Shown here one piece after another: positions 12,687-64,000 of a stretch of 64,000 bases of DNA (positions are counted from its first letter, which is position 1; each line of letters opens with the position of its first letter). The stretch lies in assembly GCF_011045215.1 (NCBI RefSeq), contig NZ_CP049201.1. One strand, 5' to 3'. Source of the stretch: Escherichia coli. GTDB taxonomy: Bacteria > Pseudomonadota > Gammaproteobacteria > Enterobacterales > Enterobacteriaceae. Both the position numbers and the translations under genes were made by a program. Under the pieces are notes generated by a model. The model ran no database searches. It saw nothing but the letters and a program-made list of their open reading frames with translations, and was not told the DNA's origin.

Positions 12687-13775
12687 ATGATGAAGCGCAA
12701 TATTCTGGCAGTGATCGTCCCTGCTCTGTTAGTAGCAGGTACTGCAAACGCTGCAGAAATCTATAACAAAGATGGCAACAAAGTAGATCTGTACGGTAAA
12801 GCTGTCGGTCTGCATTATTTCTCCAAGGGTAACGGTGAAAACAGTTACGGTGGCAATGGCGACATGACCTATGCCCGTCTTGGTTTTAAAGGGGAAACTC
12901 AAATCAATTCCGATCTGACCGGTTATGGTCAGTGGGAATATAACTTCCAGGGTAACAACTCTGAAGGCGCTGACGCTCAAACTGGTAACAAAACGCGTCT
13001 GGCATTCGCGGGTCTTAAATACGCTGACGTTGGTTCTTTCGATTACGGCCGTAACTACGGTGTGGTTTATGATGCACTGGGTTACACCGATATGCTGCCA
13101 GAATTTGGTGGTGATACTGCATACAGCGATGACTTCTTCGTTGGTCGTGTTGGCGGCGTTGCTACCTATCGTAACTCCAACTTCTTTGGTCTGGTTGATG
13201 GCCTGAACTTCGCTGTTCAGTACCTGGGTAAAAACGAGCGTGACACTGCACGCCGTTCTAACGGCGACGGTGTTGGCGGTTCTATCAGCTACGAATACGA
13301 AGGCTTTGGTATCGTTGGTGCTTATGGTGCGGCTGACCGTACCAACCTGCAAGAAGCTCAACTTCTTGGCAACGGTAAAAAAGCTGAACAGTGGGCTACT
13401 GGTCTGAAGTATGATGCGAACAACATCTACCTGGCAGCGAACTACGGTGAAACGCGTAACGCTACGCCGATCACTAATAAATTTACAAACATCAGCGGCT
13501 TCGCCAACAAAACGCAAGACGTTCTGTTAGTTGCGCAATACCAGTTCGATTTCGGTCTGCGTCCGTCCATCGCTTACACCAAATCTAAAGCGAAAGACGT
13601 AGAAGGTATCGGTGATGTTGATCTGGTGAACTACTTTGAAGTGGGCGCAACCTACTACTTCAACAAAAACATGTCCACCTATGTTGACTACATCATCAAC
13701 CAGATCGATTCTGACAACAAACTGGGCGTAGGTTCTGACGACACCGTTGCTGTGGGTATCGTTTACCAGTTCTAA
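12687..13775 (+). CDS. ompF: Outer membrane porin F, 362 aa
   Basis: ORF track 362 aa; signal peptide ..[11 protein letters not shown]-terminal VYQF typical of porins. Confidence 0.96.
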
Positions 13776-49537: not shown

Positions 49538-50968
49538 TTATTTACTATTCGCTTTACGCGCCAGCAGCGGGAATATCAGTCCTAATCCTACCAGCACAAA
49601 CGGCGTTGCAACATTCAGCGCCAACTGGAAGGTCCACTCTGCAGTGAAGGCTTCCATTTTCGGGAAGATCCCCGTCAAACAGGCAAAGGCAGTAAAGGCA
49701 AAACACCAAATCCCGACGGTCATTGCCAGAGGCTTATTACGAATAAAGACATACTCTGGTGTATATTTCTGCGCCAGGCGAACGACTGCAATAAATGCAA
49801 CAAATACCCATAAATAACGCAGCGGCATCACTACCGAGTTAAGATTCAACAGCCATTTATAGAGATTGTTCATATCACCGATGCCGAGAGTCGGCAGCAT
49901 AATCAGGATCGCCACCAGCACCAGGGTCAGAAAATAGCCATTAACGGGCGTACCAGAAGCGTTGGTACGACATAAACTGGCTGGAATATATTTGCTGTCA
50001 GCATCGCCTAATAGCACTTTAAGCGGGGCATCAATCGAGAATACCAGCGCAGCTACTTGTCCCAGGGTATTCGCAATGGCGTAAATCACCATTAAAGTAT
50101 TACCCATGTTGTAATACTCGCCCAGCTTCTGAAAGGCGTAATACTGACCGTTAGTCATTAAGTCATCCGGGATATTACGCGAGTCAAACATCATCCCCAT
50201 CGCCAGTGAGCCCAGAATGGCACAAACCGCAACCATCACCGCCAGGCATAACATCCCTTTTGGAAATTCTTTTCCTGGGTTGCGCGTTTGATTAACGTAA
50301 GGAGAAATCTTCTCAGCTCCGCCAACCGCGAAAACCAGCATTGAAATAGTGGTAATGTAGGTAAAGTCGATATGAGGAATGAACGTTTCCCAGGTAATGT
50401 TTGTGGTCGCAATATGCACTTCAGTAATCGCAGGCGCGGTTACCGCCATCGCCACATACAGGAGCGACATAACAAACATCGCAATCCCTGCCACAGAACC
50501 GACGATTTTCAGCGATTTCATACCGCGTGAAGCAACCCACATAAAGAAGATAAACAGCACCAGCGTTAACCCCTGTAACGCTACGACTGAATATTCTTTG
50601 ATTAGCGAACCGTCGCCTTTCATCGCCCAACCGAGCGCAATCAGTATTGCCTGGGGTTTTTGTGCCAGATAGGGAATATGCACCACCCAGTAGGTCCACG
50701 CGGCGAGGTAAGCCAATCCGGGTCCCATCGTGTGTTTAATCCAGGTACTGACCCCGCCCTTCCCATCTTTGAAGGTCGAGCCTAACTGACCAACAATTAG
50801 TGCATAAGGTGTGAAATAGAGCGCAAAGATAAACACCCATGAAAAAACAACCACCAGCCCCTGGTTGGCATAGTTATTAACAACGTTGCCAAAACCCCAG
50901 ACAGTGATAAAAGACATCAGCGCAATGTTGTACCATCGCAGCTGTTTTTCCTGAACATTCCCAGCCAT
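49538..50968 (-). CDS. ycaM: APC-family amino acid/polyamine transporter YcaM, 476 aa (start MAGNVQEKQ)
   Basis: ORF track frame 49538..51160; polytopic membrane protein; start chosen at internal ATG by length match to recalled YcaM. Confidence 0.85.
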   Translation of the reverse strand: MAGNVQEKQLRWYNIALMSFITVWGFGNVVNNYANQGLVVVFSWVFIFALYFTPYALIVGQLGSTFKDGKGGVSTWIKHTMGPGLAYLAAWTYWVVHIPYLAQKPQAILIALGWAMKGDGSLIKEYSVVALQGLTLVLFIFFMWVASRGMKSLKIVGSVAGIAMFVMSLLYVAMAVTAPAITEVHIATTNITWETFIPHIDFTYITTISMLVFAVGGAEKISPYVNQTRNPGKEFPKGMLCLAVMVAVCAILGSLAMGMMFDSRNIPDDLMTNGQYYAFQKLGEYYNMGNTLMVIYAIANTLGQVAALVFSIDAPLKVLLGDADSKYIPASLCRTNASGTPVNGYFLTLVLVAILIMLPTLGIGDMNNLYKWLLNLNSVVMPLRYLWVFVAFIAVVRLAQKYTPEYVFIRNKPLAMTVGIWCFAFTAFACLTGIFPKMEAFTAEWTFQLALNVATPFVLVGLGLIFPLLARKANSK

Positions 50969-51177: not shown

Positions 51178-52326
51178 TTACACGTGAGCAACGGGTTTCG
51201 GAGTATGACCGGCGTTGCGAAGCAGCATCAGCAAATAGATAAACGATACGCTGGCGATCATGATAAACAATAAATTATCGGAGAAATTCTGCATTAGCAT
51301 AGCGGTAAATGACGGGCCAAGCAGACTTCCCACGGTATAGCTCAACAGTAAGGCCTGGTTCATCGCCACCAGTTGATGATGTTCAACTTTCTCGCAAGCC
51401 CAGGCCATCGCCACCGGATATAGCGTAAAGCCAGCGGCACCGAGGATGAATAACGCTGGGGCCATCGCCGCCTGGCTAAGCATCGCGATACTGCCGAGAA
51501 TGACGACAAAGACCTGAACACGCAACACCAGCAGTCGACCAAACTTATCCGCCAGACGTCCAATCGGCCATTGTCCGAGGATACCCGCACTGACCAGTAC
51601 CGCCATCCAGAAACCAATGCTGGCATTGCTCACCCCTTTGTGATTGAGGTACAGCGGCATCAGGCCATATAGAGATCCCAGCACGATTCCTGAGATAATG
51701 CAGCCATTCACGCCAAGCCGCGCCTGACGGAGTTTTAGCATTGACGTAATTGACGTCGAATCATGGTTTTCAGCCTGCTGATTCAGGACACGCGTAAACA
51801 ACAGCGGTAAGATCCCTGCCAACGTCAAACCTGTAACCCACGGCAATACGCTCATCAGCTCGGTTGAGACTTTGCTGACCAGTAACTGGCCTAAAAATGT
51901 TCCCACGTAATAAACCATCATATACGCAGCAAGCAAACGCCCACGGTTACGTGACGTCCCACTGCACATCAGCGCGCTCTCAACGACTACCCAAATCATG
52001 GCACAGCCGACGCCCGCGACAAAACGCCACGCCAACCAGCTCCAGAAACCAATCATCAGGCCAAGGCCGGCACAGCCAGCGGCAAAAATGAAGGAGGCCA
52101 GATAATAGCTGCGGTTAAAGCCAATGCGTTTAATGACATACCCTGTCAGCAATGTACCGACAAGGTTGCCGGTAAAATAGGATGAGCTGACAACGCCTAC
52201 CTGCCATGTGGACATGTGTTCCTGGGCGAGCCAAAGCGGCACGAGTGTATTTAACACCGCGATCGCCAGAGTCAACAAAAGCAGGCCAGACAGCAAAAGC
52301 ATGACAGGCCGGGTATACGTGGACAT
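51178..52326 (-). CDS. ycaD: MFS transporter YcaD, 382 aa
   Basis: ORF track 382 aa; 12-TM MFS-like hydrophobicity. Confidence 0.88.
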
Positions 52327-52640
52327 GAATTAAAACCGTGAGGAAGTTCAAATTTCATGCGCATCATGCCACCGCAAAAAACATTGTCAATGGGTGAAAA
52401 TACGCGCATATCGCAGCGGCGGTATTATCGATTTATATTACTCATTCATAACGCTAATGCTGAAGAGATGATTAATCTCATCTGATTGTTTTTATTGATC
52501 TAACACAAATTTCATACGCTTCGTTCAGTCGAAAAATTTCATGGTCACAGCAAACTCATATTTCCCGTCTATGCTTTCAGAGCAATGCATCGCGTCTGAC
52601 CGATTTCAGACGTACCACTGACTCTCGAAAGGAGAAGAGG

Positions 52641-53267
52641 ATGACCAAACCGTATGTTCGTCTTGATAAAAATGATGCTGCCGTTTTGCTTGTTGATCAC
52701 CAGGCTGGTTTACTTTCCCTTGTACGGGATATCGAACCCGATAAGTTTAAAAATAACGTGCTGGCGCTGGGTGACCTGGCTAAGTATTTCAACTTACCAA
52801 CTATTCTTACCACCAGTTTTGAAACCGGTCCTAACGGCCCATTAGTTCCAGAGCTGAAAGCACAATTCCCCGATGCACCTTACATTGCTCGCCCTGGCAA
52901 TATTAACGCCTGGGATAACGAAGATTTTGTAAAAGCAGTCAAAGCGACAGGTAAAAAACAGTTAATTATTGCCGGTGTGGTAACCGAAGTTTGCGTGGCA
53001 TTCCCGGCGCTTTCAGCCATTGAAGAAGGGTTTGATGTCTTTGTTGTGACTGACGCGTCAGGGACCTTTAATGAAATTACCCGGCATTCGGCATGGGATC
53101 GCATGTCGCAAGCAGGTGCGCAATTGATGACATGGTTCGGCGTGGCTTGCGAGCTGCACCGTGACTGGCGTAATGATATTGAAGGACTGGCGACGTTGTT
53201 CTCTAACCACATTCCTGATTATCGTAATTTGATGACCAGTTATGACACGTTAACGAAGCAGAAATAA
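52641..53267 (+). CDS. ycaC: Isochorismatase-family hydrolase YcaC, 208 aa
   Basis: ORF track 208 aa; catalytic Cys context GVVTEVCV. Confidence 0.88.
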   Translation: MTKPYVRLDKNDAAVLLVDHQAGLLSLVRDIEPDKFKNNVLALGDLAKYFNLPTILTTSFETGPNGPLVPELKAQFPDAPYIARPGNINAWDNEDFVKAVKATGKKQLIIAGVVTEVCVAFPALSAIEEGFDVFVVTDASGTFNEITRHSAWDRMSQAGAQLMTWFGVACELHRDWRNDIEGLATLFSNHIPDYRNLMTSYDTLTKQK

Positions 53268-53272
53268 AAGAG

Positions 53273-53293
53273 AACCGGGGCCGAAACCCCGGT
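53273..53293. terminator. Bidirectional terminator hairpin between convergent ycaC and dmsC
   Basis: aaccggggccgaaaccccggtt perfect palindrome in the 35-bp gap. Confidence 0.65.
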
Positions 53294-53302
53294 TGTTACT
53301 GA

Positions 53303-54166
53303 TTAGCTTGCGACGGCCATCCCCACGGTCATATGCAAACCATAGAATACGCCGCGACCGATTAATTCCCCTGCCAGAAGCAGAATGAATGAGACGGATA
53401 GTAGCGGAACCGCAGGCTGATAACCTTTTAGCTGTGGTGCAATCCACAAGCACAGGGCAACGGCCAAAAGCACGATTCGCCAGGACATCAGCGCACCATA
53501 GTCCGGCACCAGCGCTGCGGCCTGCTGCACAGAACTATGAATAGTTGCCAGCTCTGTGCCCTGCATCACTGACATCACGCCACTCACCACCAGTGCCAGT
53601 ACAGAAATGGCTGGCAGCAGACGCATCGCCCAGCCATCGACGCCAGCCAGACTCAGCAACAGGTAACCCAGTAACGGGCCGCCCATGAACATCGTCAGGA
53701 AGAAGCCCATCGGCGTCCAGATGCTGTACCAGGTCGGAACGGTATCAATGCTGTTATACACACGCACCATCATCCAGACAAAGACGACGCCAAGAACCAT
53801 CGTCACCACCAGCCATAGCGTACGCAATGCAGGTGACAGCTTTTTCAGCGTTGCCAGCAACCAGCCGATGCCGCCTACAGCAAAAAAGATCGAACCGCTG
53901 GCGATTTCGTTACTGAGTGCTGAAGCCCCTACCCGGTTGAGCGAGTTAAAGGCGCGCATCGGTGAACCAAGATGGAGCATAGAGGCGATAAAGCCAATGC
54001 CCATCAGCACCCATAAGCCAAACATGCAGGCGATAACACGCTGCTGGGCTTCTGCTCGCTGGTCGCCTTTGAGCAGCGCCAAAGCCAGAACGATAAAACC
54101 ACCCGCCACACATTGCCCGAAGACCGTGAAGATCATCAGCGGCCATTCATGCCATCCACTTCCCAT
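53303..54166 (-). CDS. dmsC: DMSO reductase membrane anchor subunit, 287 aa (start MGSGWHEW)
   Basis: ORF track frame 53303..54229; hydrophobic; overlaps dmsB stop. Confidence 0.9.
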   Translation of the reverse strand: MGSGWHEWPLMIFTVFGQCVAGGFIVLALALLKGDQRAEAQQRVIACMFGLWVLMGIGFIASMLHLGSPMRAFNSLNRVGASALSNEIASGSIFFAVGGIGWLLATLKKLSPALRTLWLVVTMVLGVVFVWMMVRVYNSIDTVPTWYSIWTPMGFFLTMFMGGPLLGYLLLSLAGVDGWAMRLLPAISVLALVVSGVMSVMQGTELATIHSSVQQAAALVPDYGALMSWRIVLLAVALCLWIAPQLKGYQPAVPLLSVSFILLLAGELIGRGVFYGLHMTVGMAVAS

Positions 54167-54167
54167 C

Positions 54168-54785
54168 TCACACCTCATTCGGGTTTGCCAGATAGCCAGT
54201 GGTATCCCCGGTCGGGCGGCTATTGGCATTGGGTTTGATCACAATATTCGGTTTGGTAAAGTGAGCTCGCGGCAACGGCGCAACGGCCGCCAGATCGCCA
54301 TGTTTTTTACGCAGCTCGTCGATAGGGCCGAAATCCAGCGCCCGCAGCGGACAAGATTCAACACAGATCGGCTTTTTACCCTCCGCAACACGGTCATAAC
54401 AACCATCGCATTTGGTCATATGGCCTTTCGTTTCGTTATATTGCGGTGCGCCATACGGGCAAGCCATATGGCAGTAGCGGCAGCCAATGCACACATCCTC
54501 ATCGACCACAACAAAACCATCTTCACGTTTATGCATCGCACCGCTCGGGCAGACTTTAGTACAAGCCGGATCTTCGCAGTGGTTGCACGAAATCGACAGA
54601 TAGTAGGCAAACACGTTCTGGTGCCAGACACCGTTATCTTCCTGCCAGTCGCCACCAGCATATTCATAAATGCGGCGGAAGCTGACTTCTGGCGTCAAAT
54701 CTTTGTAGTCTTTACAAGCCAGCTCGCAGGTTTTGCAACCGGTGCAACGGCTGGAATCAATAAAAAATCCATACTGGGTTGTCAT
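54168..54785 (-). CDS. dmsB: DMSO reductase iron-sulfur subunit, 205 aa
   Basis: ORF track 205 aa; four ferredoxin-type Cys clusters (CTGCKTCELAC, CNHCEDPAC, CIGCRYCHMAC, CDGCYDRV). Confidence 0.96.
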   Translation of the reverse strand: MTTQYGFFIDSSRCTGCKTCELACKDYKDLTPEVSFRRIYEYAGGDWQEDNGVWHQNVFAYYLSISCNHCEDPACTKVCPSGAMHKREDGFVVVDEDVCIGCRYCHMACPYGAPQYNETKGHMTKCDGCYDRVAEGKKPICVESCPLRALDFGPIDELRKKHGDLAAVAPLPRAHFTKPNIVIKPNANSRPTGDTTGYLANPNEV

Positions 54786-54795
54786 CGGTTACTCC

Positions 54796-57240
54796 TTACA
54801 CCTTTTCAACCTGAACAAGGTTTGTATGTGACGGATTCCCCTTAGCGAGAGGAGACGGACGTTGAGTGGTCAGTACGTTAATACAACCACCCTTATCGAC
54901 ACGTTTTGCATCCGGGTCATACCAGGCACCTTCACCCAGTGCGACCACACCCGGCATCATTCGTGGCGTCACTTTCGCCTCAATATGAACCTCACCACGA
55001 TCGTTAAAGATCCTGACTTTATCGCCGTTGTGGATACCGCGTTTTTGGGCATCAAGCGGGTTGATCCACATTTCCTGACGGCAAGCCGCTTTCAGCACAT
55101 CAACGTTGCCGTAAGTTGAGTGAACGCGAGATTTATAGTGGAAACCTGTAAGCTGCAGCGGATACTGTTTGTTCAGCGGATCCTGATAACTTTCAAAGCC
55201 CGGCGTGTAGATCGGCAGTGGATCGATCACATCGCCTTCTGGCAATTCCCAGGTAGCGGCAATGTCAGCCAGCGCCTGCGAATAAATCTCAATTTTGCCC
55301 GATGGCGTAGTCAGTGGGTTTGCCTGCGGATCTTCACGGAAGGCTTTATAAGCAACGTGATGCCCTTGTGGGTCGCGCTTTTTAAAGATCCCCTGCTTGC
55401 GGAACTCTTCAAACGTTGGCAGTTCAGGAATCGCTTCCCGCGACTGGGCATACAGATGCCGCATCCACTCTTCCTGGGTACGGCCTTCAGTAAACTGTTG
55501 CTCAACGCCAAGACGTTTTGCCAGTTCGCTGGTCATTTCATAGATGGTCTTACATTCAAAGCGCGGTTTAATCACCTGATCGTTGAAAATCACGTAAGAC
55601 ATATTCCCGCAGGATGCATCCAGTGCAAAGTCCATCTGTTCGGAAGCGGTACAGTCAGGCAGCAGGATGTCAGCATATTTCGCCGATGAAGTCATGTGGC
55701 AGTCGATAACCACAATCAGCTCGCACTTCTTATCATCCTGGAGGATTTCATGGGTACGGTTGATTTCAGAATGCTGGTTAATCAGGCAGTTACCGGCATA
55801 GTTCCAGATCATTTTGATCGGCACATCCAGCTTATCTTTCCCGCGCACACCATCACGCAGCGCCGTCATTTCCGGGCCACGTTCAATGGCATCGGTCCAC
55901 ATAAACATAGAAATGCTGGTCTGGATCGGGTTTTCCAGAGTCGGCATACGGACAAACGGTAAGCTGTATGAACCTTCACGCGCGCCGCTGTTCCCTCCAT
56001 TAATACCAACGTTACCGGTCAGAATCGCCAGCATCGAGATAGCACGGGTTGCGATTTCACCGTTAGCGTGACGCTGCGGGCCCCATCCCTGGCTGATAAA
56101 CGCCGGTTTGGTACTGCCGATTTCACGAGCCAGTTTGATGATTTTGTCTGCCGGAACACCGGTGATTTGCGAGGCCCATTCCGGTGTTTTAGCCACGCCA
56201 TCTGGCCCTTCACCCAGAATATAAGCTTTATAGTGGCCATTTTTCGGCGCACTGGCTGGCAGGGTTTTCTCGTCATAGCCAACGCAATATTTATCGAGGA
56301 ATGCCTGATCCACCAGGTTTTCGGTGATCATGACATACGCCAGACCGTTAACCAGTGCGGCATCTGTTCCTGGACGAATAGGGATCCACTCATCTTCGCG
56401 CCCGGCACCGGTGTCGGTATAGCGCGGATCGATGATGATCATGCGGGCATTAGATTTCTGACGCGCCTGTTCAAGATAGTAAGTCACCCCACCGCCACTC
56501 ATTCGCGTTTCGCCAGGGTTATTACCAAACAGCACTACCAGCTTACTGTTTTCGATATCCGACGGGCTGTTGCCATCTGCCCAGCCGCCCTAGGTATAGT
56601 TCAGACCTTCCGCAATTTGCGCGGAAGAGTAGTCACCGTAATGGTTCAGATAACCGCCGCAGCAGTTCATCAGCCGCGCGACCAGGGTATTTCCCGGCGG
56701 CCAGGAGCGGGTCATGGTGCCACCCAGCGTACCGGTGCCATAGTTAAGATAGATGGATTCGTTGCCGTACTCTTTGATCAGGCGCTGCATATTGGTCGCG
56801 ATGATGTCGTAGGCTTCTTCCCAGCTAATGCGCTCGAATTTGCCTTCACCGCGCGCCCCGACTCGTTTCATCGGATATTTCAGGCGGTCCGGATTATAGA
56901 CACGGCGACGCATGGAACGCCCACGCAAACAGGCGCGAACCTGGTGCAGGCCGTCGTAATTGTCATCGCCGGTATTGTCCGTTTCGACATATTTGATTTC
57001 ACCGTCCACGACGTGCATACGTAGCGGGCAGCGACTACCACAGTTAACTGTACAGGCGCTCCAGATAACCTTTTCGTCTGATTTTGTTGGAATGGCGCTA
57101 TCGACAGCGTGCGCAATCCGACTAAAAGGTAATGTTAATGCGCTGCTGGCCATTGCCAGGCCGCCGATCGCTGTCGTTTTTACCAAACCACGGCGACTCA
57201 CCTCAGCAGCCAATACCGCATCAGGGATTTTCGTTTTCAT
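54796..57240 (-). pseudogene. dmsA: DMSO reductase catalytic subunit dmsA interrupted by an in-frame TAG (amber) at 56590-56592
   Basis: Two same-frame ORFs (56590..57240, 216 aa with Tat signal SRRGLVKTTAIGGLAMA; 54796..56535, 579 aa) are separated only by a TAG; hand translation gives ...AEGLNYT*GGWADGNSPSDIENSKLVVLFGNNPGE, which is continuous DmsA sequence with a stop where Tyr is expected. Confidence 0.75.
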
Positions 57241-57410
57241 AATGGCTCACTCAAGCTTGCTCACGATTGATTCCAGTAACAAACCGTATTGTGTAATTAT
57301 TTCTATAGCAGATCGCTATATAGGCTTGTATACATCGAATAATTTGAAAATCAAAGAGATAGGTAGATTTTCACTCGAAAGTAGTATTACGTGTAAGTGA
57401 GGAGTAATTA

Positions 57411-57424
57411 TTGTTCGGTATCAA
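57411..57424 (-). promoter_or_regulatory. FNR site TTGATACCGAACAA in dmsA promoter
   Basis: Minus-strand reading of ttgttcggtatcaa gives TTGAT-ACCG-AACAA; about 170 bp upstream of dmsA start codon. Confidence 0.65.
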
Positions 57425-57436
57425 AGGGAGACAAAA

Positions 57437-57458
57437 AAAGCGCCCGCAGGCGCTTTTT
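57437..57458 (-). terminator. Rho-independent (bidirectional-looking) terminator after serS
   Basis: aagcgcccgcaggcgctt hairpin flanked by A-run and T-run. Confidence 0.85.
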
Positions 57459-57478
57459 AGATTCAGAAAAATTAGGTA

Positions 57479-58792
<1,314 letters not shown>

Positions 58793-58861
58793 TTAAATGG
58801 GAGATGTGGCCACAGCCTGCGACCACAGGGATACAGTAACAACATTACCGCAACGATAACA

Positions 58862-60205
58862 TTAACGGTAGCGTTTTATGGGGCTATTTTGATCCTGTTC
58901 AGCCAGCCAGGCGAGCTTTTCGCCAATCTTGCCTTCAAGGCCCCTGTTTGACGGGAAATAATAGCGTGTTTGTGCTATTTCCGGCGGGAAGTAAACCTCA
59001 CCGGCAGCATAAGCGTTTGCTTCATCATGAGCGTAACGATATTCCTGCCCATAGCCCATTTCCTTCATTAATTTCGTCGGCGCATTACGCAAATGAACCG
59101 GTACGTCATAATCCGGACGTTCGCGAGCATCGGCCAACGCGGCTTTAAACGCAGTGTAGACAGCGTTACTTTTTGGCGCGCAGGCCAGGTAAACAATCGC
59201 CTGAGCAATGGCGCGTTCACCTTCCGCCGGGCCAACGCGAGTAAAGCAATCCCAGGCTGCAATTGCCACCTGCATCGCTCGTGGATCAGCATTACCCACA
59301 TCTTCAGACGCAATCGCCAGACAGCGACGCGCAACATATAACGGATCGCCACCGGCAGTAATAATTCGCGCATACCAGTACAGCGCCGCATCGGGTGCGC
59401 TACCACGTACCGATTTATGCAGTGCGGAAATGAGATCGTAAAAGCGATCACCTTTGTTATCAAAGCGGGCACTACGTTCACCTGCGATTTCGGTCAGTAA
59501 TTCAGGCTTCAGGACCCGCTTACCGCTATCATCGACTTCGGCCATATCCGCCATCATTTCCAGCGTATTTAACGCCCGGCGCGCGTCGCCATTCACCAGT
59601 TCAGCAATGGCGCGTCGTGTTTCATCTGGCAGAACAATATCCTGACCACCATAGCCACGGGTTTTGTCTTCCATCGCCTGAGTTAGTACTTGCTGAATAT
59701 CCTCTGTACTCAGGGATTTCAACAGATAGACACGGGCACGGGAAAGCAGTGCCGAATTAAGCTCAAACGACGGGTTTTCAGTGGTTGCGCCAATAAAAGT
59801 GATGGTGCCGTCTTCAATATGTGGCAGAAATGCATCCTGCTGGCTTTTGTTGAAACGGTGAACTTCGTCAACAAAAAGAATAGTGCGGCGACCTGCATTG
59901 CGGTTTTGCCGGGCGCGCTCGATCGCCTCGCGAATCTCTTTCACGCCAGAGGTGACGGCAGAAATACGTTCCACATCAGCGTTCGCATAGCGGGCAATCA
60001 CTTCAGCGAGGGTTGTTTTGCCGGTACCCGGTGGCCCCCAGAGGATCATAGAATGTAAATGCCCGGCTTCGATAGCGCGCGGCAACGGCTTCCCCGCAGC
60101 CAGCAAATGTTGCTGGCCGATATACTGTGCTAAATTTTCTGGCCGCATACGCGCGGCCAGAGGTTGAAAAGTATTATCCGAAAAATCGAGCGACAGATTG
60201 CTCAC
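58862..60205 (-). CDS. rarA: Replication-associated recombination protein A (AAA+ ATPase, MgsA/YcaJ), 447 aa
   Basis: ORF track 447 aa; Walker [12 protein letters not shown]. Confidence 0.95.
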
Positions 60206-60215
60206 TCAGGTGCCT

Positions 60216-60827
60216 CTACTTACGTTGATCATCTACCGTGACGCCTTGCGGCGGGGTGAAGGTAAATTTCGCTGCATCCACAGCCCCATTTTGCTGGGAT
60301 TTCAGTTGATAACTGCTGCGCTGATCGTCCTGCTCCACCGCGCTAAACTGATGGATTGTGCCATCACGTCCCACGTTAATGGTGAACTGCTTCAGATTGC
60401 CATTGCTGGCTTTCGGCGTCAGGACAAAGTCATCGCCATTCTGTTTGATATTGTACTGCTGCCAGTCGCTGGACTGGTTGCGGGCAATCAGCATAAACGG
60501 CGTATTACCGGTGGCATCTTTCAGCCAGGTTGCCGTAGCTTGCTCAACGAACGGGTTATAGAACCACAGTGTTTTACCGTCAGAAACCAGAATGCTTTCA
60601 TCAGGTTGTGTCATATGCCAGTTGAATAAGTTTGGACGTTTCACCCACAGATCGCCCTGACCTTCCTGCACCGCCGCGCCGCTACCATCAGTCACTTTTT
60701 GTGTGAAGCTGGCGTGGAAGCTGCTGACTTTATCCAGGCGGCTTTTCAGATCGCTTGCGGCATCAGCCCAAACGCTGCTTGCTACTAAGCTTGAGAGTAA
60801 TGCACAGGTGATGGCAATTTTTTTCAT
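60216..60827 (-). CDS. lolA: Periplasmic lipoprotein carrier LolA, 203 aa
   Basis: ORF track frame 60216..60830; signal peptide [21 protein letters not shown]. Confidence 0.95.
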
Positions 60828-60981: not shown

Positions 60982-63900
60982 TTAGTCAAACGGCGGTGGG
61001 GCCAGCACTTCACGATTACCGTTGTGCCCCTGTTCGCTGACAATCCCCTGCGCTTCCATCTGTTCGATAATACGCGCTGCACGGTTATAACCAATGCGGA
61101 ACTGACGCTGTACGCCAGAAATTGACGCTTTGCGTTTTTCAGTGACAAACTGCACCGCCTGATCGAACAACGGATCCAGTTCTTCAGCGCCATCGAAACC
61201 GCCCGCGCCACCTTCGCTTTCACTGTCGGAAGTGATGCCATCAACATACTGTGGGCGACCACGCGCTTTCCAGTCCTGCACCACGGCATGAACTTCCTGA
61301 TCGCGAACAAAAGCACCATGGACACGTACCGGCAACGTGGAGTTCGGCCCAGAGTAGAGCATATCCCCCATACCCAGCAGTGATTCCGCGCCAGCCTGAT
61401 CAAGAATGGTACGTGAGTCAATCTTACTGGATACGGTAAAGGCGATACGGGTCGGAATATTCGCTTTAATCAGACCAGTAATAACATCAACCGATGGACG
61501 CTGAGTTGCCAGTACGAGGTGGATACCCGCGGCACGGGCTTTTTGCGCCAGACGTGCTATCAGCTCTTCCACTTTTTTACCTACCGTCATCATCAGGTCG
61601 GCAAATTCGTCAACCAACACCACAATGTATGGTTCTTTTTTCAGCACCGGATGCTGGGCATCCATACTGTCACCCGGCTTCCAGTACGGGTCTGGAATCG
61701 GACGCATCATGCGATCGGCTTCAGCAATTTTTTCGTTATAACCCGCCAGATTACGCACACCCAGCGCAGACATCAGTTTATACCGACGCTCCATCTCGTT
61801 AACACACCAGCGCAGCGCGTTGGCGGCATCTTTCATATCAGTAACGACTTCCGTTAACAGATGCGGAATGCCTTCATAAACCGAAAGCTCCAGCATTTTC
61901 GGGTCGATCATGATGAAACGCACATCTTCTGGCTGTGCTTTATAAAGCATGCTCAGGATCATCGCGTTCACACCGACAGATTTACCGGAACCGGTAGTCC
62001 CCGCAACCAACAAGTGCGGCATTTTCGCCAGATCGGCAACCACCGGCTCACCGGCGATATCTTTACCCAGCACCACGGTTAATGGCGACGGATTATCGCG
62101 GAATTTGGCGTTATCCAAAACTTCGCGCAGATAAACGGTTTGTCGTTTTTTATTCGGTAACTCCAGACCTACATAGGGTTTGCCAGGAATAACTTCAACG
62201 ACACGCACCGCCACCGTCGAAAGTGAACGGGCAAGGTCCCGTGACAAGTTAGAAATGCGCGCCGCTTTTACGCCCGGTGCCAGGTTCAATTCAAAGCGAG
62301 TGATAACCGGCCCCGGAGAGTAATTGACGACATCGGCTTTAATACGGAAATCAGCCAGACGCGCTTCCACCAGGCGAGCCATTTGTTCAAGCGCAAAGGT
62401 ATCTACCGGCTCCACTTCGCTCGGCGGCGGTGTCAGCAAATCCAGAGAAGGCAGCGGCGTCGTCGGTTTATGCAACGGACGGCTGTCGCCATTACGCATC
62501 AACAGCGGATGAAGCAGGGTATCCTGCTGCTGCGGTGCAACCGGTTGTTGCGGCTGCTGTACAGGTTCAACAATTGGCGTAAACAACGGTTCGTGTGGAC
62601 CATCATCCAGCAACGCTTTCATTGGCGAAAATTCAAAATCATCCAGCGAGAACGGATTCGCCCCAGCCGGTTGTTCGCCGGAATAACGTTGTTGTTGAGT
62701 TTGCGCAAACTGACGAGCCAGTTCAGCCTCTGCCGCAGCATCTGCATCTTCTGCGTTTACGGGCACATCATGTTGATACTGTTCGCCATAGCGTTGCTGC
62801 TGTGTCTGGGCGAACTGACGTGCCAGTTCATCCTGCTGCATCGCATCGATTTCATCATCGTTGTACTGATCGCCAGAATCGTACTGATTGCGCTGGGCTT
62901 CACGGGCTTTTTCTTCCGCCGCACGCTGTGAGGGCAGCTTAATACCGTAAGACGCCAGTTCACGACGAGTTGGCACGCGGATACGTTTCGGTCGTGGCAA
63001 CTGCGGGCCAATCCCCTCTTTGACCTGCGGACGCGGTCCACCGCTATTTGCCAGACTGAAGACTGGCGCGGCAACGGTTGCGGCAGCCCCCGTCGCCAGT
63101 GTCGCTTTTTTCACGCCAGATGCCAGCGGAGAAACAGCGGCAGCGGTTTCTACTGGAGGTACTGCTGCAACAGAAAGTGCTTTCAGCGAAGATTTGATCG
63201 GTTCTGGTTCTTTAACCGGTTCTGGAATCGGTTGATACCAGGCCGCAAGTTGTTCACGTTCACGGGCTCGCTTCTCTTCCACTTCTTCAAAGTAGTAAAG
63301 CGGCGGACGCGCGGGTTTTGTCTCTTCTACAACGGGTTCAGGCTCCACAACAGGCTGCTGTTCAACAGGTTGCGGCTGTTGGTACAACGGCTCCTGAGCG
63401 GCTGGCTGCTGATAAGTTTGCTCAGTCTGGTATGTAGACTGTGGAGCAAAAGTGGATTGCTGCTCTTCGGCTTGCCAGGCGTTACCTGCCACCGGTTGTT
63501 CTGGCGCAGGGGCATAATACGGCTGTTGCGCAGGCTGTTCCGGCGCAGTTGCGTAATACGGTTGCTGAACAGGTTGTTCCGCCGCAGGAGCGTAGTAAGG
63601 TTGTTGCGCAGGTTGTTCAGCTGCAGGTGCATAATACGGCTGCTGCGGCTGTACTGGTTGTTGCAGCGGCTCATTATATTGCACTGCAGGCTGCGCATAT
63701 TGTGACTGCTGTGGGTAACCTTCCGGTGCAGGAGCAATAACCGGCTCTCCCGTTTGTGGACCCGGTACAGGCTGCCAGGCTACTGTAGGTTGCGAAGGTG
63801 GAACATCAACAGAGGCAACAGGCGGCGTCTGAGTCACAGGTTCAACCGGCGCAGCCCAGCTTTGTGTCGCCGTGGTAGCAGCAGCTGCCACAGCGACAGG

Positions 63901-64000
63901 TTCGGTAATTGGCGCACCGTTTAATAATGGATCGTATTCGTCATATTCTGGCTGCGTTGCACGATTGCCCGAAAATAGGACGTCGTCCGGGTCGGCAGCC
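60982..64000 (-). CDS. ftsK: DNA translocase FtsK, C-terminal ~1005 aa (N-terminal membrane domain lies beyond the window)
   Basis: Minus-strand frame open from 60982 to the window edge (I checked there is no stop between 63891 and 63999); Walker A GTTGSGKS and Pro/Gln-rich linker present. Confidence 0.95.
63490..63645 (-). repeat. Four imperfect 39-bp tandem repeats encoding [13 protein letters not shown] in the FtsK linker
   Basis: Translation [13 protein letters not shown] / [13 protein letters not shown] / [13 protein letters not shown] / [13 protein letters not shown]; both DNA strands are open in several frames here. Confidence 0.8.

Follow-up and report, generated by a model that had tools for sequence, protein, structure and literature searches.

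The dmsABC locus and its neighbourhood

The stretch of DNA analysed here, referred to as the window, comprises 64,000 nucleotides of Escherichia coli sequence and carries the genes of anaerobic DMSO reductase on its minus strand. The gene of the catalytic subunit, dmsA (54796..57240, minus strand), is 2445 nt long and aligns without gaps and with 99.8% identity to the annotated dmsA of E. coli Combat11I9 (NZ_CP021726.1). No closer complete E. coli genome was found, and Combat11I9 served as reference for dmsA and for the gene-by-gene comparison. The dmsA gene of the window contains one in-frame stop and is a pseudogene as encoded. Directly downstream, as expected for dmsA and in the order of annotated genomes, lie dmsB and dmsC. 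The dmsB gene (54168..54785, minus strand), which encodes the iron-sulfur subunit, is intact (TIGR02951, 268.3 bits; cutoff 214.1) and differs from the reference by one amino acid; it starts 10 nt past the dmsA stop codon and has a strong SD (-8.7 kcal/mol). The gene of the membrane anchor subunit, dmsC (53303..54166, minus strand), is also intact, with 864 nt, 98.4% identity to annotated dmsC and no stops, and PF04976 matches the homologous 287-aa DmsC products. On the other side of dmsA, the serS-dmsA intergenic region (57241..57478, minus strand) holds the serS terminator together with the promoter region of dmsA, with one promoter-like site at 57434..57407. No rearrangement was found there, and the alignment to the reference is gapless across 51796..60240.

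Alignment of 48 reference genes, from elfD to lolA, to the window revealed that only dmsA has an internal stop or frameshift. The other complete genes are collinear and of full length, with per-gene identities of 97.5 to 100% except for a divergent ompF allele, and ycaM is frameshifted in Combat11I9 but intact in the window. A second lesion in ftsK was ruled out, since the partial ftsK translates without a stop inside the window; the ftsK ORF that seems to begin within the window is a product of the way ORFs are listed. The earlier claim that dmsA is the sole lesion in the window was thus upheld by all 47 of the other complete genes and by the partial ftsK. No IS elements or rearrangements were found across the 64 kb. 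The lack of IS elements, and of any second pseudogene among the 48 collinear genes, allowed genome decay of the Shigella type to be discarded. The locus resembles the known E. coli dmsABC operon in its arrangement (serS-dmsABC-ycaC), its gene lengths and its dmsA nucleotide identity, and differs from it at codon 217, a stop in the window that leaves a product of 216 aa and, at best, another of 579 aa.

An amber codon replaces Tyr217 of dmsA

The premature amber codon occupies positions 56592..56590 of the minus strand, where the reading is AAC TAT ACC TAG GGC GGC TGG. It is flanked by two open reading frames in the same frame, one of 216 aa that begins at an ATG (56590..57240) and one of 579 aa that begins at a GTG (54796..56535), and the frame of about 814 codons expected for dmsA is therefore interrupted by an internal TAG at codon 217. 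Conceptual translation across the stop gives uninterrupted DmsA sequence (...AQIAEGLNYT * GGWADGNSPSDIENSKLVVLFGNN...). The dmsA genes of the window and of Combat11I9, both of 2445 nt, differ at five positions and show no gaps: codon 217 is TAG in the window and TAC in the reference, and the remaining four differences are synonymous third-position changes. The coding-strand change is a single C-to-G transversion (C651G; position 56590 on the plus strand of the window), with no indel or rearrangement. A conserved sense codon has been replaced by a stop while the length of the gene is unchanged, which is the pattern of a nonsense pseudogene.

These data agree with the first-pass annotation, which had described a dmsA gene split by a single TAG at 56590-56592: the sequence and the ORF listing confirm the split, the gapless 2445-nt alignment confirms that the DmsA translation continues across the stop without rearrangement, and the reference alignment identifies the proposed one-codon Tyr-to-stop change as TAC to TAG. 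In the remaining 813 codons there are no non-synonymous changes relative to the closest allele, and no indels or decay were detected downstream of the stop.

Ancestral codon and distribution of the allele

It had been suggested that alignment to reference genes would give TAC or TAT as the ancestral codon, and we found TAC nearly everywhere and TAT in a handful of genomes. A 41-mer centred on codon 217 and carrying TAC matched 5,390 of 5,426 complete E. coli genomes (4,484 exactly), and the corresponding TAT 41-mer matched nine (seven exactly). With queries of 71 and 401 nt, the TAG allele had no exact match in the 5,426 complete E. coli genomes, and the best match among them differs at the stop base alone. 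Neither the GTDB species representatives nor the JGI metagenomes contain the exact TAG-bearing 29-mer. As a positive control, the same 29-mer scans with N at the variable base recovered 19 loci, of which 16 carry TAC and 3 TAT; E. albertii, two Citrobacter and 16 gut-metagenome contigs are among those that read TAC or TAT. Tyr217 is therefore conserved outside E. coli as well, whereas the TAG allele is private to this lineage.

A comparison over 25 kb gave 99.4% identity to the best complete genomes (O55:H7 and O157:H7), and the closest complete genomes overall are 99.2-99.4% identical. By these sequence comparisons the source is a wild-type-like E. coli that has no close relative among the 5,426 complete RefSeq genomes and is no K-12 laboratory strain.

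Other dmsA haplotypes in a public protein collection encode the same 579-aa C-terminal sequence. The absence of non-synonymous changes and the presence of only four synonymous differences from the closest allele suggest that the lesion is recent, and dmsA was presumably under purifying selection until very recently. The undecayed sequence past the stop indicates either a very recent lesion or an artefact, and is no argument against loss of function.

Products of the interrupted gene

The N-terminal fragment (216 codons; 56593..57240, minus strand) covers profile positions 1-216 of NF011566 and comprises the Tat signal and the Fe-S cluster domain, together with the beginning of the molybdopterin domain. 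The twin-arginine (Tat) signal expected of DmsA lies at residues 14-45 (57106..57201, minus strand; TIGR01409, 21.1 bits, cutoff 16.7) and is present on this fragment alone. The C-terminal ORF (579 codons from the GTG at codon 236; 54796..56535, minus strand; profile positions 237-814 of NF011566) has no signal peptide and covers the remainder of the molybdopterin domain as well as the molybdopterin-binding domain. PF04879 and PF00384 match the 216-aa product and PF00384 and PF01568 the 579-aa product, so that the split falls inside PF00384. Against the NF011566 cutoff of 1600 bits, the N-terminal fragment scores 498.1, the C-terminal fragment 1387.5 and the protein with Tyr217 restored 1957.1. 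The gene is dmsA by descent, and its encoded products are not full members of the DmsA family because both fragments score below the cutoff.

The YGDYSS motif of DmsA (residues 201-206) aligns with YGDH of the perchlorate reductase PcrA, a motif that we take to hold the molybdenum-ligand aspartate. DmsA-Ser176 in the older 785-residue numbering would presumably be Ser205 here. In that case the stop would follow closely after the ligand region and precede nearly all of the cofactor-binding fold.

In E. coli, translation is known to restart beyond early nonsense codons, as in lacI, and an active split enzyme could in principle be assembled from halves made separately, with a restart at GTG236 or ATG247. 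GTG236 is only 57 nt past the stop, and its SD-like match (-5.3 kcal/mol) is close in energy to that of the native dmsA start (-4.7 kcal/mol). However, this match abuts the GTG instead of lying 5-9 nt upstream, and ATG247 has almost no SD (-1.9 kcal/mol). In addition, residues 217-235 would be in neither piece and the break lies inside PF00384. No promoter-like site was found on the coding strand between the stop and dmsB. The GTG had already been judged a poor independent start in the first-pass annotation, and the abutting SD-like match, the lack of an internal promoter-like site in this interval and a product devoid of the Tat signal all point the same way. The related proposal that the UAG is a site of programmed recoding meets the difficulty that every relative examined has an ordinary Tyr codon, and therefore this is not a conserved recoding site; Rfam found no recoding element in 53000-59000. 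Selenocysteine uses UGA, and to our knowledge E. coli has no pyrrolysine machinery. We regard a split enzyme or programmed recoding as scarcely credible.

Downstream of the stop, the 1.8 kb of dmsA left untranslated contain C-rich, G-poor windows, which makes Rho-dependent polarity on dmsBC plausible.

Authenticity of the stop codon

Exact look-up of both fragments in the public protein collection, followed by retrieval of the contig, led to run SRR11014969. Its Logan re-assembly (k=31) carries the same TAG in contig 10, which is 23,845 nt long and unbroken at the site, and its identity to the window over 51796..60240 (8.4 kb), TAG included, is 100%. The Y217* TAG allele was seen only in the window and in SRR11014969. 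Since an independent pipeline working on raw reads crosses the site without a break, the stop was not produced by one particular assembler, and G evidently predominates in the SRR11014969 reads. The run may derive from the same isolate, so it may not be an independent confirmation. Inspection of the raw reads had been recommended at this codon, and the recommendation has been followed in part: re-assembly of the SRR11014969 reads gives the same base, as evidence at the level of the contig and not of a read pile-up.

Among spontaneous transversions, C to G is uncommon, and this was counted against a genuine mutation. A templated (quasi-palindrome) origin of C651G was ruled out, since no nearby template, direct or inverted, is longer than 5 nt, below the null median of 6-7.

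The surroundings of codon 217 are also peculiar in public assemblies. Public collections contain hundreds of contigs, drawn from many lineages and produced by several assemblers, that stop at dmsA nt 636-650, most of them at nt 647-650. Other public contigs start at nt 638-646, a pattern that looks as if both sides were heterogeneous within a sample. Contig counts per cluster are unreliable (for P0033, 3 contigs are listed against 159 index blocks) and were not used as frequencies. Products cut at the neighbouring codons 211, 217, 218, 220 and 221 were absent from the public protein collection.

Several origins of these contig ends were considered and rejected. Shared k-mers with ynfE/ynfF were excluded, as these genes have no common word of at least 17 nt with dmsA in K-12; a second genomic copy was excluded because a search relaxed to E <= 10 still gave 5,426 places for 5,422 records; a common TAC/TAT polymorphism was excluded by the rarity of TAT (9 records, 7 of them exact matches, among 5,426 genomes); and a single clone was excluded by contigs with 26-89 differences per 3.6 kb. 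An attachment site for a phage in dmsA was discarded, since the 'phage' records with dmsA in them are P2-like prophages whose boundaries were drawn too wide: they sit next to serS, ahead of a dmsA that is intact, and L018 is arranged likewise. A transposable element with target-site duplication was also discarded, with both sides being pure wild-type dmsA without foreign bases. SNP bubbles in the de Bruijn graph of mixed samples partly account for the pattern, because the right-hand contigs start at nt 638, next to a common SNP at nt 637, but they do not account for the left ends at nt 647-650.

These observations bear on whether the TAG might have arisen through faulty sequencing or consensus calling, or by mutation in the sequenced culture, with the natural strain carrying TAC and a working dmsA. 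Such an origin would fit an allele found in one other dataset alone, possibly from the same isolate, and absent from the 5,426 complete genomes and two large public collections. The altered base lies directly 5' of GGCGGC, and the contig breaks at nt 647-650, explained only in part by SNP bubbles, could mean that sequencing or assembly runs into difficulty here. On the other hand, a Logan contig that is unbroken over 23.8 kb is what would be expected if essentially all reads had G and not a mixture of C and G, the right-hand contigs of other samples all read TAC and give no sign of a common miscall as G, and no further error that breaks a frame is seen in the rest of the 64-kb window. Taken together, we consider an error or a culture-acquired mutation unlikely.

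Other dmsA knockout alleles and possible suppression of the stop

Inactivated dmsA genes are found in other natural E. coli. The complete genome of 0H15 (NZ_CP081677.1) has a 14-bp deletion at dmsA nt 629-642 and that of A1_181 (NZ_CP040067.1) a 296-bp deletion in dmsA; RefSeq annotates both genes as frameshifted pseudogenes. The lesions in draft and metagenome contigs include a 13-bp deletion, insertions of TA and of A, two different 1-nt deletions, and W220* as TAG or TGA. Y215* also occurs in such contigs, as TAA on at least three dmsA backgrounds and as TAG once. The change T645A (Y215*) would perfect a short inverted repeat, GGTTT/AAACC, with a stem of only 5 bp. These pseudogenes are similar to that of the window in the region hit (nt 629-663) and in the intactness of the rest of the operon, and the Y217* TAG mutation of the window is distinct from theirs. 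Because other natural E. coli carry different dmsA knockouts, the gene is evidently dispensable in nature.

At least 12 distinct knockout alleles in public data were assigned to dmsA nt 629-663, an interval of 35 nt, although the crowding arises largely from the fragment look-ups, which recover only lesions that give the queried fragment lengths. On its own, the crowding of alleles near codon 217 is no evidence of a hot spot. Were nt 629-663 nevertheless a genuine hot spot of mutation or rearrangement, as the number of alleles, the occurrence of Y215* TAA on at least three backgrounds and the contig ends at nt 647-650 might suggest, DMSO respiration would be turned off repeatedly by a process specific to this site, with the TAG of the window as one of its fixed products. 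We hold such a hot spot to be distinctly unlikely.

The knockout alleles are also relevant to the possibility that the stop is real but read through, either by an amber suppressor tRNA (glnV/supE inserting Gln or tyrT/supF inserting Tyr) or by near-cognate decoding. The first-pass annotation had raised amber suppression as a caveat, which is a reasonable one. The perfect conservation, as protein, of the 597 codons downstream of the stop would be consistent with read-through, and a very recent mutation predicts the same. No tRNA gene was found within the 64-kb window. It speaks against suppression that supE alleles are common in K-12 laboratory derivatives, whereas the strain is not such a derivative, its closest complete relatives being only 99.2-99.4% identical. 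Basal read-through of UAG in suppressor-free E. coli is about 0.1-1%, too low for normal levels of the enzyme, and the frameshifts and deletions in natural dmsA genes are beyond rescue by any suppressor, which indicates that outright loss is tolerated. Read-through is accordingly very improbable.

Two known situations are comparable in part. The rpoS amber alleles of E. coli K-12 are laboratory alleles that a suppressor tRNA can rescue; as in dmsA of the window, they consist of an in-frame UAG in an otherwise intact, suppressor-rescuable gene, but the window strain is not a K-12 derivative. Genes of anaerobic respiration, including dms genes, decay in host-restricted Salmonella serovars and in Shigella. 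The likeness is the loss of a terminal reductase for an alternative electron acceptor, and the difference is that the window has a single lesion in an intact 64-kb region and no sign of genome-wide decay.

Predicted effect on DMSO respiration

In our reading, a genuine and recent C to G mutation (TAC to TAG) has very probably turned Tyr217 into an amber stop in this lineage and left it without a catalytic subunit. Translation would stop after 216 of 814 residues. The resulting fragment would still carry the Tat signal as well as YGDYSS and the Fe-S cluster domain of the N-terminus, and about 73% of DmsA, including most of the domains that bind Mo-bisMGD, would be lost, so that no catalytic subunit would be formed. 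In E. coli, DmsA and DmsB are exported by means of the Tat signal of DmsA, with the chaperone DmsD (PMC12096835). DmsB, which lacks its own signal peptide, is exported along with DmsA, and about 1.8 kb of dmsA mRNA upstream of dmsB would remain untranslated. Because the export of DmsB depends on DmsA, and because of the untranslated mRNA ahead of dmsB, the whole DmsABC complex would be missing or very scarce. We infer both a loss of enzyme activity and polarity on dmsBC.

With a non-fermentable carbon source and DMSO as sole electron acceptor, the strain would be expected to show no anaerobic growth. Loss of DmsABC activity had been anticipated in the first-pass annotation, and the expectation is backed by the phenotype of delta-dmsA E. 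coli, which does not grow by anaerobic DMSO respiration (PMC12096835). Six other S-/N-oxide reductases give partial redundancy (PMC12096835), and reduction of TMAO and of other S- and N-oxides by TorA, TorZ, BisC, YnfEFGH and MsrP would probably be retained.

Significance

The dmsA amber codon reveals no new mechanism. It is an ordinary, strain-private and apparently recent nonsense pseudogene of a well-known, dispensable and partly redundant gene, and in annotation dmsA is best flagged here as a pseudogene and not as two genes. For the strain it predicts a specific metabolic defect, no anaerobic growth with DMSO, with otherwise mild consequences; mild effects may also extend to the repair of oxidised sulfur and nitrogen compounds and to adherence to host cells, functions recently attributed to DmsABC. 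For the species, the allele is one more case of the repeated loss of dmsA in natural E. coli, and it fits the redundancy among the seven S-/N-oxide reductases.

Knockout alleles and contig ends within dmsA

At least 12 further independent knockout alleles of dmsA, the catalytic subunit gene of anaerobic DMSO reductase, are found in public E. coli assemblies at window positions 56578-56612 (dmsA nt 629-663), all of them no more than 35 nt from the amber codon of the window (56592..56590). These alleles, drawn from the retrieved loci L002-L012, L046, L048-L055 and L065, comprise deletions of 13 bp and 14 bp, two different 1-nt deletions, the insertions +TA and +A, W220* as TAG and as TGA, and Y215* as TAG and, in at least three backgrounds, as TAA; their clustering results in large part from the search design. 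Strain A1_181 carries a 296-bp dmsA deletion that includes the site of the window's stop.

Public contigs, hundreds in all, terminate at dmsA nt 647-650 or start at nt 638-646; they come from lineages that are not related and were built by more than one assembler. In the contigs with edges at window positions 56591-56605 (nt 636-650; loci L014-L021, L056-L061 and L066-L083), the sequence is wild type right up to the edge in every case. The causes ruled out for these edges are repeats and paralogs, a phage attachment site, the insertion of an element, and a single clonal origin. SNP bubbles explain the contig starts at nt 638 but not the ends at nt 647-650.

The serS-dmsA spacer

In other strains, a P2-like prophage with integrase, C repressor and Cox lies at the serS terminator, immediately upstream of the dmsA promoter, at the equivalent of about window position 57456 (contig L018, 1-2785; record L062, ON470599.1, 11683-33684), and the window carries no prophage at this site. 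Prophage boundaries were set too wide in the GenBank 'phage' records vB_EcoM-569R5 and vB_EcoM-705R2, as well as in a P88-like record, and these entries therefore take in as much as 11 kb of host DNA, from ycaO to dmsA. In the same spacer, positions 57331-57465 (plus strand) match the enterobacterial sRNA family STnc130 (Rfam RF02084) over its full length, with 140 bits where the gathering score is 55; the match lies on the strand opposite to dmsA and overlaps both the serS terminator and the dmsA promoter region.

Other genes of the window

Truncation of ftsK (60982-64000, minus strand), as resembled by a 969-aa ORF with an in-window start in the ORF listing, was rejected, since the translated frame stays open to the window edge and the gene thus merely continues past it. 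The open frame that holds dmsC (53303-54229, minus strand; 308 aa, against 287 aa as annotated) reaches 21 codons further upstream than the annotated start, into the end of dmsB; it is a mere upstream ORF extension and no lesion. The ycaM frame (49538-50968, minus strand) is whole in the window and frameshifted in the closest reference genome, Combat11I9, which has a 111-nt gene remnant between ycaM and pflA where the window has only a 210-nt spacer. The ompF gene (12687-13775, plus strand) is a divergent allele, with 90.8% identity and 21 gap positions relative to Combat11I9 and a product of 362 versus 357 aa, while its neighbours are 98-99.8% identical. A porin gene kept variable by diversifying selection, or one exchanged by recombination, would be expected to show this pattern.
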